Shown here: one piece after another, positions 1,204 through 56,319 of the stretch
How the letters are laid out: each line of letters opens with the position of its first letter
Position numbering within the stretch: position 1 is the first letter of the stretch
Origin: Candidatus Kaiserbacteria bacterium CG10_big_fil_rev_8_21_14_0_10_45_20
GTDB taxonomy: Bacteria; Patescibacteriota; Minisyncoccia; Phycocordibacterales; Phycocordibacteraceae
Direction: 5' to 3'
NCBI GenBank assembly: GCA_002773335.1
Contig: PFBH01000014.1
Coordinates: forward strand, 8,023-72,022
DNA length: 64,000 nucleotides
The notes under the pieces: model-generated
Told to the model about the DNA's origin: nothing
What the model saw: the letters and a program-made list of their open reading frames with translations, nothing else
Databases searched by the model: none
Translations under genes and position numbers: made by a program

Positions 1204-1591
1204 TATATTGTATATTAATTCTTCTAAGAAAAATCCGATGCTTATGGCATCGGATTTTTACTATCTGTTCGATTATCTTTCTATACTATAGCGTCCTTCC
1301 TTCTACGTCAAGAGGGAGTACAAACTGATTTTTATCTTCAGGTTTCGGTAGCGGTAAGTGAGCCTGCGTAAGGTCTCTCTCACTATCTTCAGTGCGTTGA
1401 GGTGGTGTGTTAAGAGTTCTGCTAAAAAAAGAATCTGAGGATTCAATTGCCATATAATAGGAAATTATATATTTATAAATATATTCTTACAAGTTCATTA
1501 TACCCCTATTAATTTTTTCAAAAAGATTATTTTCACAGAAAACCAGCACGTTGTAGGCTGAACCGATAATTACGATGCTACTATTGAAGTA

Positions 1592-45885: not shown

Positions 45886-46452
45886 TTATACCATATCTGT
45901 AGGTTTTATGCCAGTTTTCTTCTCTTTTGGCGCCTTCTTTTTTCCTTCGCGCTCAAGAACGAGGTAAAAGCCTTTTGGACCCTTCTTTATATCTTCGGCA
46001 ATTTTGTATTCTTCAGGAACAAGGAGCACAAAGCGCATAAGCCGTTCTTTGAGGAAATTTTGGTCCATATACTTATATCGACCCTTCAAAAAGAGCTCTA
46101 CCTTTACTCGGTGCCCCTCACGAAGCCACTCTGCCGATTGACGAGCCTTACGGGTAAGGTCATGTTCGCCGGTCACTACCTCTACCTGTACCGCCTTTGT
46201 CTCTGTGTGGTGCGCTTTTGCTTTTACATCACGCTCTTTCTTTTTTTCTTGGTATTGAAATTTTCCATAGTCCATAATTTTGGCTATAGGAGGCTTCGCT
46301 TTAGGAGATATTTCTATAAGGTCGAGAGACGACTCTTTGGCACGACGAAGCGCCTCTTCAAGAGAGACAATGCCAATATTGTCTCCGGTGGGACCAATAA
46401 CACGAAGTTCTTGGGCTCGGATTTGTTCGTTTATTCTGGTTCTCTGTTTCAA
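45886..46452 (-). CDS. infC: Translation initiation factor IF-3
   Basis: INEQIRAQELRVIGPTGDNIGIVS and a C-terminal domain. The true start may be a non-AUG codon, as is usual for infC. Confidence 0.85.
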   Translation of the reverse strand: MKQRTRINEQIRAQELRVIGPTGDNIGIVSLEEALRRAKESSLDLIEISPKAKPPIAKIMDYGKFQYQEKKKERDVKAKAHHTETKAVQVEVVTGEHDLTRKARQSAEWLREGHRVKVELFLKGRYKYMDQNFLKERLMRFVLLVPEEYKIAEDIKKGPKGFYLVLEREGKKKAPKEKKTGIKPTDMV

Positions 46453-46495
46453 AGCGTTGTAGCGGTATTCTAACGCGTGATTGACTCTTTTACAA

Positions 46496-46549
46496 CCACC
46501 TCCACAATCACAAATACCCCTTGCGGGGTATTTGTGATTGTGGAGGTGG
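46496..46549. repeat. Perfect 25 bp-stem hairpin that also copies the last nucleotides of ssrA plus its terminator. It is a direct repeat of 46827-46879.
   Basis: CCACCTCCACAATCACAAATACCCC-TTGC-GGGGTATTTGTGATTGTGGAGGTGG. The right arm recurs exactly at 46855-46879. Confidence 0.8.
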
Positions 46550-46869
46550 AAGGTGGCGTCAGCTCACTCAGTATTTTGTTTCGCTCGATAGTTCGCTCAC
46601 AAAATACTGAGTGGCTCCTGCCCGGGCTCGTCCGTCGCAGGGCGGCATGACTCCGCCTTTCATTCCCCCACGAAAGCCAAGCAGTTGGCTTTCTCCACTG
46701 CGTTTGAAATCTGTTAAGCGCTCGCGACCCCGGCTCGGCTTTTCTCTTTCGCAGGAAAATACAACGAAAGAGAAATATACCTCCGCCCGGTTCATTCCCC
46801 ACGCACAGTGCGCAGGCACTGTGCTCCCACCACCCAATAAAAATACCCCTTGCGGGGTATTTGTGATTG

Positions 46870-47257
46870 TGGAGGTGGGGGGGAATGAACCCCCGTCCGA
46901 AAAGGGTCTTTGGGACGACTCTACAAAGCGTAGTTCTTTTTTTCACCGTGAAGTGAATTTAAGTATTAGTGTATAAAACGAACAAAAGAAGCTAATACCG
47001 AGCTCTCAATTTTCGAGAAGTTGTACGAGCAAAAAACTTCCTTATTCCGACTATATTACACCGGGTATCTCACTGTCAGAAAGAGTGAGATTCGATGCTG
47101 CTTAGGCTAAAGCGTAAGCAGGAGCACCTACGAACTGAGCGTAAGGGCTCTTAACAAGTGATTTTACACTTTGGGTTACTCGAGATTTTAGGTGTTCTCG
47201 AGCATTCACCGCTTTGCACGAAACAAAGGTGACCTTCCGTCAAAACTAGTCACCCCC
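46870..47257 (-). ncRNA. ssrA: tmRNA (ssrA), standard one-piece form
   Basis: The minus-strand 5' end GGGGGTGACTAGTTTTGACGG matches the tmRNA consensus GGGGnUGA...UUCGACGG. The 3' end GGACGGGGGTTCATTCCCCC-CACCTCC-A is a T-arm plus acceptor strand that pairs with the 5' end (one G.U pair). An internal tag reading frame ends ...GAPAYALA-TAA. A terminator hairpin follows immediately. Located just downstream of smpB. Confidence 0.8.
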
Positions 47258-47354
47258 CCACAGTATGTCCGCGTACGAACCTGTTCGTACAAGAGCTGGT
47301 ATGAAATATTCATAACAACTCTTGGCGGATATACTGTGGCCGAGCGACTAGTGC

Positions 47355-50741: not shown

Positions 50742-50816
50742 CCGCCCTTAGCTCAATTGGTTAGAGCATCTAGCTTATACCTAGAAGGTTTCCTGGTTCG
50801 AGTCCAGGAGGGCGGA
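50742..50816 (+). tRNA. tRNA with anticodon UAU (Ile, reading AUA), no encoded CCA
   Basis: Acceptor stem CCGCCCT/AGGGCGG, D-arm GCTC-AATTGGTTA-GAGC, anticodon arm TCTAG-CTTATAC-CTAGA, T-arm CCTGG-TTCGAGT-CCAGG. The variable loop appears to be 6 nt, so the fold has one irregularity. Confidence 0.6.
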
Positions 50817-51282
50817 CATGATAGAGAAAAGCAAACTGCTTTGCTTTTCTCGATACATGTCCGAGCCGGAGCCATGTTTTTCCAGCAGGAAAAACAGGCG
50901 AGGCGGGGTCGCGGAATTTTGCGAGTGACTGACGAGCAAAATATCCGTGACGACCAGACAGAAATATCCCGCCTGCGCGGGATTTTCTGCGTCAGTCCGA
51001 GGCACAGGGTTGTGTGAGTTTGAGCGAAGCGAAAGGCGAACACCCCGAGCCGGGGTCACCACAAGAGTACTTCTATTTCTCTAATTCGATGACTCATAAG
51101 AGAAATTGGTCGCGCGAAAAATTTCCGTTAGGAAATTTATTTGTGACGACCAGATACAAATATCCCGCCTGCGCACTGTTTTTGTTTACATGTCCGAGCC
51201 GTACCACACGGGCACTTCACAAACGTGTGCAAAAAATCATTGTAGTGGCAATAACACATAACATCCTATATCATAGCTGTAT

Positions 51283-55006: not shown

Positions 55007-55663
55007 ATGTCGGCAGAGTCATTTAAGAGAGCAAGAGATCGTTGGCAAATTGAAAGAGAGGCTAAGATTTTTCTTTCAAAAAAAGGTATTGCAAAGTGGA
55101 AAGAGAGGTTAGAGCAAGAAGGGCTCCGTAAATTTCATGACGCGATTATTGATACTCGGTGGGTACGGGTTCCTGATATACGCGGTCGATTTGTGAGCGC
55201 TCGCCTCCGTACCGCGACAGAGAAAAAAGACCCGAAGCAGTTTTTATGGGCAATTAAGGTTCGTACATCAGCGCACTCTGAGGCAAAGCACATTAAAGAG
55301 TGTTACGAACTCGAAGGAAGTGGAGATTCAATGAAATCAGTACGAAAAGAACTCAAGAAACACTTAAGGGCGGTGCTCGGCAAAGAAACTCCAGACAAGT
55401 TGATAGAAGATAGGCGTCTTATAAAACGACGAGTGTCGTACGAAACGCAAGATCTTAACCACTCACTTTTTGGCGTACGGTTTGATATAGATACACTTGA
55501 GACTGTGAACGGTAAAAAAATAGACCCTCCCATCCACATTCTCGAACTAGAGGGGCTTTCGGAAACGTTGATACTCTCAGCGACTAAACACTTGGGGATA
55601 GATCCGCAAAAACTTTCTTCTATATCAGGCAAGGTATTGCTGAAAGAGACGGGGTATTTGTAG
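55007..55663 (+). CDS. Hypothetical protein (218 aa, Lys/Arg/Glu-rich)
   Basis: ORF lies 1 bp after the malic-enzyme stop. No recognisable motif. Confidence 0.4.
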   Translation: MSAESFKRARDRWQIEREAKIFLSKKGIAKWKERLEQEGLRKFHDAIIDTRWVRVPDIRGRFVSARLRTATEKKDPKQFLWAIKVRTSAHSEAKHIKECYELEGSGDSMKSVRKELKKHLRAVLGKETPDKLIEDRRLIKRRVSYETQDLNHSLFGVRFDIDTLETVNGKKIDPPIHILELEGLSETLILSATKHLGIDPQKLSSISGKVLLKETGYL

Positions 55664-56246
55664 AGAGTGCGGGATGTGTCTTCGCTACGCTCGCACGCAT
55701 CGGTCACAGATATTTTGTTCGCCGTCGCTCACAAAATTCCGCGCGACCAATTTCTCTTACGAGTCTGCGAGTTAGAGAAATGGAAGTACTCTTGTGGTGA
55801 CCCTGTCTCGCGACCCATTCTGCTGAATGGGTACCCTGCTCCGGCTTTCGCGACTTTGTTTTGTTACGAACGAAGTGAGTTAGAAAACAAGAAGTGCCCG
55901 TGTGGTACGACTTTGTTTTGTTACGAACGAAGTGAGTTAGAAAACAAGAAGTGCCCGTGTGGTGAATCCCGACGTAAAGCACGCAGGTGCTTTACTCACT
56001 CTCCGCAGTATACTCACTGCGCTCGAATCTGCGGAGAGTGCGGGATGTGTCTTCGCTACGCTCGCACGCATCGGTCAGGAATAATTTGCTCGTCAGTCAC
56101 TCGCAAATTTTCACGACCCTGGCTCGTCTGTTTTTTCTGCTGAAAAAACATGACTGCGCCTTTCGAATCCCGACGTAAAGCACGCAGGTGCTTTACTCAC
56201 TCTCCGCAGTATACTCACTGCGCTCGAATCTGCGGAGAGTGCGGGA
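55664..56246. repeat. Array of long direct repeats seeded from the 3' end of tRNA-Ser: an 82 bp direct repeat (55965-56046 and 56165-56246), a 44 bp direct repeat (55664-55707 and 56034-56077) and a 57 bp tandem duplication (55851-55907 and 55908-55964)
   Basis: Exact string matches seen in the sequence. The last copy runs into the tRNA-Ser 3' end. Confidence 0.8.
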
Positions 56247-56319
56247 TTCGAACCCGCGAGGGCGGTTAAGCCCTACCTCGTTAGCAGTGAGGCGCTTTCG
56301 ACCACTCAGCCAACTCTCC
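56233..56319 (-). tRNA. tRNA-Ser (anticodon GCU), long variable arm
   Basis: The reverse complement gives GGAGAGT acceptor, anticodon loop CTGCTAA, a 19 nt variable arm, T-arm GCGGG-TTCGAAT-CCCGC, and 3' ACTCTCC-G. Confidence 0.8.

Follow-up and report, generated by a model that had tools for sequence, protein, structure and literature searches.

A duplicated ssrA 3' end in a Kaiserbacteria genome: an array of small structured modules, possibly mobile, that recur at the 3' ends of stable-RNA genes

The DNA analysed here, called the window below, is a stretch of 64,000 nt (64 kb) from contig PFBH01000014.1 of Candidatus Kaiserbacteria bacterium CG10_big_fil_rev_8_21_14_0_10_45_20, a member of the Patescibacteria (CPR). 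Our subject is the spacer between its ssrA and infC genes, together with the small structured modules of which this spacer appears to consist. On the minus strand the order is smpB (47798-47355), ssrA, a spacer of 414 nt and the infC-rpmI-rplT operon from 46452 onwards; infC itself runs from 46452 to 45886, with a TTG start at 46452. The ssrA gene, encoding transfer-messenger RNA (tmRNA), is located at 47257-46867, where it matches Rfam model RF00023 over its full length with 94.3 bits; despite this score, ARAGORN missed it. The T-loop of the tmRNA (UUCAUUC, 46889-46883) is followed by the 3' strand of the T-stem (46882-46878), the 3' strand of the acceptor stem (CACCUCC, 46877-46871), which pairs with the 5' GGGGGUG of the tmRNA via G3·U70, and the discriminator A (46870). 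As read from the sequence, the mature tmRNA probably ends at this A. The CCA end is not encoded (the sequence reads CAA), and the same applies to both tRNA genes of the window.

The first-pass annotation of this locus had claimed that the end of the tmRNA is duplicated together with its terminator, and a repeat search of the window confirmed this. A perfect direct repeat of 38 nt (46512-46549 and 46841-46878) comprises the last 9 nt of the tmRNA and 29 nt of trailer and terminator; with up to 3 mismatches allowed, the 38-mer occurs only twice in the window, versus 0.00 occurrences expected. The infC-proximal copy is part of a perfect palindrome of 54 nt (46496-46549), as had also been noted, with two arms of 25 nt (46496-46520 and 46525-46549) around a loop of 4 nt. 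In a BLAST comparison this palindromic unit was 92.6% identical, with 2 gaps, to the 52-nt unit next to the tmRNA, which is an imperfect version of the palindrome, the two copies differing in the 3' arm only. A U-tract is present at the tmRNA-proximal copy only (UUUUUAUU after the stem) and none follows the palindrome on either strand. A pair of intrinsic terminators was therefore rejected as an explanation, as this would need a GC-rich hairpin with a U-tract at both copies. The palindrome was also considered as a displaced native terminator, which was rejected since the native terminators of the closest relatives (GCCGGCG...) are unrelated to it. It does lie in the promoter region of infC, as first annotated, and directly abuts a promoter-like TTGTAA-17-TAGAAT; a similar TTGCGA-spacer-TAGAAT precedes infC in four relatives (L096-L099; numbers with the prefix L denote loci of relatives and metagenome contigs).

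Fragments of the tmRNA T-arm had been reported between the two copies of the repeat. The fragments are real: the sequence TTCATTCCCC was found three times in the 64 kb versus 0.09 times expected, once in the T-loop of the tmRNA (minus strand, 46880-46889) and twice in the spacer (plus strand, 46659-46668 and 46791-46800). However, they are not further direct pieces of the gene; both copies in the spacer are inverted relative to ssrA and represent complements of the T-loop and T-stem on the tmRNA strand. The spacer as a whole folds into a chain of near-perfect hairpins that is far more stable than shuffled sequences on both strands (z = -12.3 and -12.8). An open reading frame (ORF) of 158 amino acids, which runs across the spacer and the 3' part of ssrA (46470-46946, minus strand), is annotated as a gene on every sister contig. 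As it lacks a Pfam match and overlaps the tmRNA, this ORF is almost certainly spurious; none of the three ORFs in the spacer matched Pfam. One sister contig (L008) terminates inside the tmRNA-proximal copy of the repeat.

Short BLAST matches directed us to the regions just downstream of the two tRNA genes of the window, where the same module could be read, so that all three tRNA-type genes of the window carry it. Modules of this family measure approximately 130-190 nt, encode no protein, are highly structured and are found at the 3' ends of stable-RNA genes (tRNA, tmRNA and one 23S-5S spacer). On the strand of the host gene, a unit starts with a terminator-like hairpin. Next comes the host gene's 3' end (the 3' strand of the acceptor stem and/or the T-stem and T-loop) as an inverted, Watson-Crick copy, which is often split by a small hairpin, h1. 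The third part is a core of two hairpins, P_a and P_b, with invariant junctions AG-N-CGGAG ... CGAG-N'-CGGGGUCGCGG ... AUCCGUGAC; its order is AG-N-CGGAG, P_a, CGAG-N'-CGGGGUC and P_b (GUCGCGG ... CCGUGAC), the latter with a conserved G·U pair and a bulged A. The last part, which immediately follows the conserved GTGAC, repeats the host gene's 3' end in direct orientation, from C56 of the T-loop to the last nucleotide. In a second subtype, to which the units behind the tRNA-Ile gene of the window belong, the direct copy consists of the last 3 nt and 3-6 nt of trailer, and a long hairpin is present of which the base contains the tRNA end.

Based on this anatomy, the 291 nt between the two copies of the 38-nt repeat were resolved into two units in tandem, T1 and T2, both of them decayed and both belonging to a small, structured module without coding capacity (Table 1). 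Covariance model R1 was searched against 665 kb, consisting of the window and 85 loci of relatives. Unit T1 begins with the terminator of the tmRNA: the segment 46826-46862 forms, with 46863-46879, an imperfect long hairpin, H0, in which GGGUGGUGGG is an imperfect complement of the 3' strand of the tmRNA acceptor stem. The same layout, with the complement of the acceptor strand after the terminator, was seen in L017, L023, L024 and L044. The core of T1 contains GGGCGGAGG, the P_a hairpin (46741-46775) and CGAGCCGGGGUCGCG (46723-46737), whereas P_b is truncated; it scored 23.9-24.0 bits with model R1 (E = 0.027 over the 665 kb and 2.2e-5 locally). The start of T2 is homologous to GAGAAAGCAAACTGCTTTGCTTTCGGGAAATTGAATCAGTCGGAGTCATG of L017, and the h3 hairpin of its core has perfect arms of 15 bp (46565-46613). 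T2 scored 21.6-24.9 bits with the same model (E = 0.085 over the 665 kb and 1.4e-5 locally). Homology with individual units elsewhere was clear, as h1 and the inverted T-loop block of T1 resemble L070 and the corresponding block of T2 resembles L017. In the palindrome, the repeat is followed by an exact complement of the acceptor strand, UGGAGGUGG, with an A opposite U70. By analogy with the truncated terminal units of L112 and with an 83-nt repeat behind the tRNA-Ser gene of the window (see below), the most plausible reading of the palindrome is that of an H0 hairpin left from a third, truncated unit. The assignment of the spacer to two decayed tandem units and the truncated start of a third, all of one family of structured modules, is well supported.

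The two tRNA genes are followed by longer arrays. Behind tRNA-Ile(UAU), the core of the first unit (I1) was located at 50858-50951 and that of the second (I2) at 50994-51093, with a partial third unit from approximately 51189; with model R1 they scored 97.1 bits (I1) and 21.1 bits (I2). A hairpin, CGGACAUG...CAUGUCCG, takes in the last 4 nt of the tRNA, and the units end with GTGACGACCAGA at 50947 and 51143. The array behind tRNA-Ser(GCU) contains a perfect direct repeat of 83 nt (56165-56247 and 55964-56046, 201 nt apart), which begins inside the T-loop and T-stem of the tRNA (AUCCCGCACUCUCCG...), and a third, short copy of this repeat (55663-55675) closes the array. Its cores are located at 56074-56167 (S1), 55763-55852 and 55705-55743, and the units of this array scored 83.2, 30.6 and 35.3 bits. 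I1 and S1 are 82% identical and have the same h3 loop, a private feature of copies within one genome. Using one unit of the tRNA-Ser array as query, nhmmer found only the three arrays in the window.

Table 1. Features of the ssrA-infC spacer and of the sister arrays behind the two tRNA genes (positions in the window)
Feature	Position	Strand	Evidence
ssrA, mature part	46870..47257	-	Rfam RF00023; ends and G3·U70 read from sequence
38-nt repeat, copy next to the tmRNA (final 9 nt of tmRNA, trailer, terminator 5' arm, loop, start of 3' arm)	46841..46878	-	repeat search, BLAST
Terminator stem-loop AAAUACCCC-GCAA-GGGGUAUUU, then U-tract UUUUAUU, then GGGUGGUGGG	46826..46862	-	sequence, fold
Hairpin h1 of unit T1, GCACAGUGCCUGCGCACUGUGC	46803..46824	-	homologous to L070 AGCAAAGTGCCTACGCACTTTGC
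Inverted copy of tmRNA T-loop/T-stem in T1, GUGGGGAAUGAACC	46789..46802	-	12 nt 100% complementary to 46880-46891
Decayed core of T1	46713..46794	-	covariance model R1, nhmmer
Start of T2: acceptor-complement remnant GCAGUGGAG (46693-46701), h1' (46672-46692), inverted T-loop/T-stem GUGGGGGAAUGAA (46659-46671)	46659..46701	-	
Decayed core of T2: AGGCGGAGUCAUG, ACGAGCCCGGGC, long h3 hairpin, end ...GAGCUGAC	46556..46664	-	model R1
Perfect 25+4+25 palindrome, including the infC-proximal copy of the 38-nt repeat (46512-46549)	46496..46549	-	repeat search, folds
Promoter-like TTGTAA-17-TAGAAT directly after the palindrome, upstream of infC	46467..46495	-	consensus evidence only
Array behind tRNA-Ile(UAU) (gene 50742-50817)	50818..51282	+	model R1, nhmmer, repeats
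Array behind tRNA-Ser(GCU) (gene 56319-56232)	55663..56247	-	model R1, repeats

The fold of the core is supported by covariation. In a first set of units (n = 10), collected by hand without the search pattern, the junction pair N:N' covaried, with all four Watson-Crick combinations represented, and 10 of 10 had the G·U pair of P_b; conservation of this G·U favours the sense strand. For 28 further units, RNAalifold predicted 31 pairs, 22 of which showed compensatory changes. In this set 94.9% of the cells were paired, versus 31-46% with the partners slid, and 168 double changes were counted, versus 14-42 in the slid controls; the observed values were reached in none of 500 shuffles. N:N' was CG in 12 units, GC in 10, AU in 5 and UA in 1. 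Part of P_b was fixed by the search pattern with which these 28 units had been found, and covariation in that part is thus under-sampled. The inverted copy has an A opposite U70 in four tRNA-Ala units, as it has in the palindrome of the window; it is therefore complementary to the 3' strand of the host gene and not a copy of its 5' strand.

No known RNA family accounts for these modules. At gathering scores, Rfam 15 recognised only tmRNA and tRNA in the window. Permissive thresholds (E up to 10 for the spacer, E up to 5 for the tRNA-Ile array) added nothing credible, and in 14 further loci the modules were likewise not covered. The permissive matches were limited to microRNA-like hairpins and a sub-threshold one to tmRNA_permuted (21.4 bits against a cut-off of 47), which reflects the end of the tmRNA and its complement. 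Hammerhead, twister and HDV ribozymes, domain V of group II introns, K-turns, mini-ykkC and a tRNA-like cloverleaf were considered and dropped, as no model matched. Permissive Rfam thresholds gave no match to a ribozyme, leader, group I intron or known small RNA either. A group I intron (Rfam, 67.9 bits) was observed at L109:9925-10175 (minus strand), where a module and several tRNA genes are found on the same metagenome contig. Full-text searches of the literature yielded no description of such modules, and they are not mentioned in a 2026 paper on group I introns in tRNA genes of Patescibacteria.

In an unbiased test of their position, model R1 gave 16 matches with E <= 0.11 over the 665 kb, T1, T2, I1 and S1 among them, all just downstream of a tRNA or tmRNA gene. 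Scanning metagenomes with a pattern for the P_b region revealed at least 120 loci, a census that is biased to one subfamily. Listed pattern matches which also had complementary N positions, 108 in total, were regarded as genuine modules. Among the matches listed, 62 of the 108 modules lie at most 300 nt downstream of a tRNA or tmRNA gene on the same strand, and none has a tRNA gene of the opposite strand on its 5' side. The host genes represent at least 16 tRNA isotypes and tmRNA, and other listed modules follow tmRNAs missed by ARAGORN or are located in a 23S-5S spacer. The latter was seen in L156 (~1250-1335, minus strand), where one module lies between the 23S and 5S rRNA genes. Among the 54 listed cases adjacent to a tRNA or tmRNA gene, CCGTGAC is followed in 30 by 10 nt or more that exactly repeat the 3' part of the gene; most of these copies begin at the very next base and at C56 of the T-loop, measure 15-21 nt and include CCA where it is encoded. 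An inverted copy of at least 8 nt is present in 45 of the same 54.

A GC-rich subclass (56-65% G + C; L101, L102, L107, L123, L124, L134, L164 and others) has the same P_a/P_b core after ...GGCCGCAAGGGCGGAGG. In this subclass the core is found within long closing inverted repeats, in ordinary intergenic regions between housekeeping genes and away from tRNA genes. In L132 and L151, the GC-rich subclass and a unit linked to tRNA-Arg were observed approximately 50 nt apart on opposite strands.

We also compared the ssrA-infC region among relatives. Thirteen metagenome contigs (L001-L013) with the same SmpB or IF3 were 100% identical across the locus and represent one population. In L096-L099, whose IF3 is 80% identical, and in L015 the site is empty: the synteny smpB-ssrA-infC is the same and the tmRNA is followed by terminator, promoter and infC. 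The interval is highly variable among relatives at the species level, with sizes of 134 nt, 426 nt with a GIY-YIG ORF, and approximately 3.2 kb; the latter was found in L016 and L027 and contains neither an integrase domain nor an ssrA repeat. Small ORFs for GIY-YIG nucleases (83-84 amino acids, Pfam E = 1e-17) were observed just downstream of ssrA in L014 (2272-2526) and L027 (4986-5237); their flanks contain no module and no repeat, and no connection to the module family was found. In two other relatives (L094 and L095, SmpB 77% and 74% identical) smpB-ssrA is inverted relative to the infC-rpmI-rplT block as compared with the window, and both contigs stop no more than approximately 30 nt beyond ssrA, as though a repeat had interrupted the assembly. 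On the 5' side of ssrA in the window, an inverted repeat of 28 nt (82% complementary) was observed at 47245-47272 and 47325-47352. Its first arm comprises the first 13 nt of the tmRNA and 15 nt upstream, the partner lies 52 nt further upstream at the end of smpB, and the pair may be a 5' processing stem or the terminator of smpB.

A systematic scan of relatives revealed duplicated 3' ends of ssrA 150-250 nt downstream of the gene in L023, L024, L040, L060, L070, L073 and L100. Between the duplicated ends inverted T-arm copies are present, each matching the T-loop of its own genome. In L100, the insert is non-coding, measures 150 nt and lies between 21-nt repeats of the ssrA 3' end of that genome. 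This insert (L100:5905-6080) and one behind tRNA-Ile in the same genome (2760-2925, minus strand) have the architecture of the modules, from the terminator through the inverted T-arm copy and a pair of hairpins to 15-21 nt copied from the 3' end of the gene, with a different core sequence, which suggests a wider superfamily. The orthologous tRNA-Ile gene beside ftsH gave a similar picture: in L096 it is followed by a 36-nt spacer without a module, in the window and in L028 by a module, and in L100 by the variant core.

Taken together, we favour, with moderate confidence, the reading that the ssrA-infC spacer is a short array of a widespread family of modules at the 3' ends of stable RNAs, and that these modules are non-autonomous insertion elements specific for such ends. 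That they are mobile insertions is more likely than that they are cis-acting RNAs which are often lost, but it is not proven. The modules would arrive by an insertion that duplicates the 3' end of the target, and inserted units could pile up in tandem. Such a process is consistent with L189, in which two identical units of 135 nt each end with GTGAC-A and an 18-nt copy of the end of tRNA-Trp, after which the native flank resumes, with L131, in which the direct copy is immediately followed by the next tRNA gene, and with L112, which has three identical units of 134 nt and a truncated fourth. The units would be non-autonomous, acting via a factor encoded elsewhere, and the form under selection is probably a folded single strand (RNA or single-stranded DNA) with the same polarity as the host gene. 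At the locus studied, the 38-nt repeat and the palindrome would be the target-derived boundaries, and the two T-arm fragments the inverted copies of the two units. The inserted unit probably supplies the working terminator of the tmRNA, with the array pushing the infC promoter to approximately 330 nt from ssrA. That the terminator hairpin belongs to the inserted unit agrees with the lack of relationship between the tmRNA terminator of the window and those of its closest relatives.

The locus had previously been interpreted as the scar of an insertion, with an excised island, a decayed island and a miniature element as options. The first part of this interpretation stands, as the architecture is that of an insertion at the 3' end of ssrA and the site is empty in L096-L099 and L015. 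The idea of an excised or decayed island or a lost integrase does not; the miniature element fits best of the three, the intervening DNA consisting of small structured units.

How a target is chosen is a separate matter. We tentatively consider a selfish element of which the folded nucleic acid, rather than a protein-recognised site, defines the target, so that insertion occurs by pairing with the tRNA 3' end; on present evidence this is a minority option. The complementary segment would then resemble a primer-binding site or a guide, the copy also bearing a direct copy of the target end. Copying primed by the tRNA 3' end, or a folded single-strand att site mimicking the target duplex, would be conceivable routes, and either would regenerate target-matched ends at each jump.

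Several findings weigh against the favoured reading as a whole. Neither an enzyme that could mobilise the modules nor a free or circular form nor an autonomous relative was found, and a single site-specific recombinase explains neither the 17 different targets nor the target-matched inverted copy. Presence/absence polymorphism within the species is uninformative, all 13 contigs of the population being identical. T1 and T2 score weakly with model R1 (~24 bits), so that their assignment depends on the model, the shared anatomy and the clear local homology to L017 and L070 units together. The 38-nt repeat is perfect beside decayed cores, which requires an extra event such as conversion, a recent duplication or selection; a template-switch 'correction' of a quasi-palindrome could account for it. 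In addition, the units of L040 and L060 appear to be orthologous and to have diverged in place, indicating that some copies are old, and the strong covariation and the invariant junction nucleotides fit a host-beneficial, vertically inherited and often lost RNA equally well.

The last two points lead to the best-surviving alternative, namely that stable-RNA transcription units carry the modules as cis-elements which benefit the host and are inherited vertically, with arrays and repeats arising by local duplication and gene conversion rather than by mobility. As 3' trailer RNA they might serve as terminator or insulator, as processing platform or as decoy that pairs with the tRNA 3' end. The conserved G·U on the sense strand, the strict same-strand position downstream of tRNA, tmRNA and 23S genes, the presence of a module at all three tRNA-type genes of the window, the terminator-like hairpin in each unit (with a U-tract on the tmRNA-proximal one) and the absence of a nearby mobility gene all speak for this alternative. 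However, the module is wholly absent at orthologous sites (ssrA-infC in L096-L099 and L015, tRNA-Ile in L096), target 3' ends are cleanly duplicated with the native flank resuming (L189, L131), tandem copies can be identical (L112, L189) and the GC-rich contigs contain the same core with no tRNA nearby. Moreover, the terminator lies between gene and module, so that most transcripts from the tRNA or tmRNA promoter would exclude the module, and an inverted copy, if co-transcribed, would compete with folding of the tRNA. We consider this explanation doubtful.

The original suggestion of an integrase-dependent island or prophage in ssrA, imperfectly excised or decayed to 291 nt and leaving attL and attR, is much less probable. 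Such islands are characteristically marked by a direct repeat of the ssrA 3' end, as in Dehalococcoides (PMC3146451), and the ssrA-infC interval does vary among relatives. Nevertheless, the intervening DNA is fully accounted for by two tandem units of a conserved structured family, also present behind tRNA-Ile and tRNA-Ser, and where an island would predict one element family at one site, the core is found behind 16 tRNA isotypes, in a 23S-5S spacer and behind tmRNA. The 137 ORFs that flank modules share no protein family beyond pairs of housekeeping domains, no recombinase family recurs among them, and no integrase, transposase or other recurrent protein lies beside any of the approximately 100 modules. 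Likewise, neither these ORFs nor the 64 kb visible of this genome revealed a candidate autonomous transposase element adjoining the modules. The 3.2-kb inserts of L016 and L027 lack an integrase domain and an ssrA repeat. The attP of such an island would contain CCACCTCCACAATCACAAATACCCC. In searches of limited sensitivity, no matching attP was found on a phage, plasmid or circular element: the 25-nt palindrome arm had 0 matches in a metagenome contig collection from which the JGI contigs of this genome are apparently missing, and in the phage and plasmid collections the spacer had no blastn match. In viral contigs, the full core pattern gave 0 matches and two short patterns gave, by our estimate, about the number expected by chance, with no true module.

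Two further explanations are hardly tenable. L20-binding leaders (Rfam RF00558) upstream of infC are known in Firmicutes, and the spacer, which is directly upstream of infC and very stably folded, could be a regulatory leader of infC-rpmI-rplT, for instance an autoregulatory one with an attenuator, the likeness to tmRNA being incidental; but at E up to 10 there was no match to RF00558 or any other leader family, the entire array lies upstream of the promoter-like site, relatives have the same operon without the spacer, and the same modules follow tRNA genes with unrelated downstream genes. Template switching is known to 'correct' quasi-palindromes to perfect palindromes and may be the step that made this palindrome perfect, the two copies differing in the 3' arm only, but a purely local accident, in which replication slippage or template switching duplicated the terminator and no family exists, is just as improbable, as it leaves the inverted T-loop copies, the model matches of T1 and T2 and the same architecture at two window loci and dozens of others unexplained.

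The genes for tRNA and tmRNA are the classic landing sites of integrases. Here, a footprint resembling that of an island appears to be made by a protein-less element of approximately 130 nt, at 17 or more targets and with a covarying core that matches no Rfam family. This widespread, structured, protein-less family is apparently undescribed. If the modules are mobile, their targeting must adapt to each tRNA 3' end, which would be a new principle of site choice in bacteria; if they are not, the stable-RNA operons of Patescibacteria and of some other uncultured bacteria contain a structured RNA that has not been catalogued. In practice, the arrays break short-read assemblies (as in L008), yield spurious ORF calls such as the 158-amino-acid ORF and can mimic island scars.

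Among known systems, integrative elements and islands that target tRNA and tmRNA genes, at the T-loop or at the 3' end, share several features with the arrays. The ssrA islands of Dehalococcoides have a 20-bp ssrA repeat at their bounds, occur in tandem and carry an integration module with a serine recombinase (PMC3146451). As in such islands, a direct repeat of the 3' end, running from the T-loop to the end of the gene, brackets the insert and leaves the gene intact, tandem arrays have one repeat per unit and the distribution among relatives is patchy; integrase-less, 'cis-mobilisable' remnants are also known. Unlike islands, the modules measure 130-190 nt, encode nothing and have no adjoining integrase, and one core serves 16 tRNA isotypes and tmRNA, with each copy matched to its own target. 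They also contain an inverted copy of the target and an RNA-like covarying core.

Miniature repeats, such as MITEs (transposable elements of the miniature inverted-repeat type), REP/BIME/REPIN sequences, IS200/IS605-derived PATEs and the Correia, ERIC and RPE elements, are likewise small, non-coding, hairpin-rich, multi-copy and intergenic. They too are probably mobilised in trans, their same-genome copies are most alike, and a strand-specific fold is found in REP and in the ends of IS200/IS605. In contrast, the modules are strictly placed and oriented directly after stable-RNA genes, no related transposase was identified, and their direct repeat is derived from the target and variable in length (6 to >20 nt), where miniature repeats have a short duplication of constant size or no duplication at all. 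Classification as a MITE was rejected, the inverted segment being a copy of the host 3' end that differs per target and the direct repeats measuring ~6 to >20 nt, up to 83 nt in arrays. As to a possible place among IS200/IS605-type ends, PATE and REP, which insert 3' of a short target without duplicating it, strand-specific hairpins and a conserved 3' end (...CCGTGAC) are present in the modules, but so is a target duplication.

Integron attC sites and the attP(+) hairpin of CTX phage, which is used by XerCD, resemble the modules in that a folded single strand is apparently selected and arrays lie next to the target, and an inverted pair of target-like sequences can form, on folding, a duplex similar to the double-stranded target; the resemblance is structural only. 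The modules differ in having neither an integron integrase nor a phage context and in using many tRNA 3' ends instead of one site. Finally, the primer-binding site of retroviruses and long terminal repeat retrotransposons and the tRNA-derived short interspersed nuclear elements (SINEs) offer a parallel, as a lead only, in an 18-20-nt complement of the tRNA 3' end (3' strand of the acceptor stem and T-stem/T-loop), in terminal direct repeats and in being, for SINEs, small non-coding multiplying elements related to tRNA. In contrast to these, the module has no complement of CCA where CCA is not encoded, its complementarity is often broken by a hairpin, no reverse transcriptase is linked to it, and it adjoins the tRNA gene itself. 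Should insertion be guided by pairing, the element would be the counterpart in bacteria of a SINE or of a miniature element directed by a guide.

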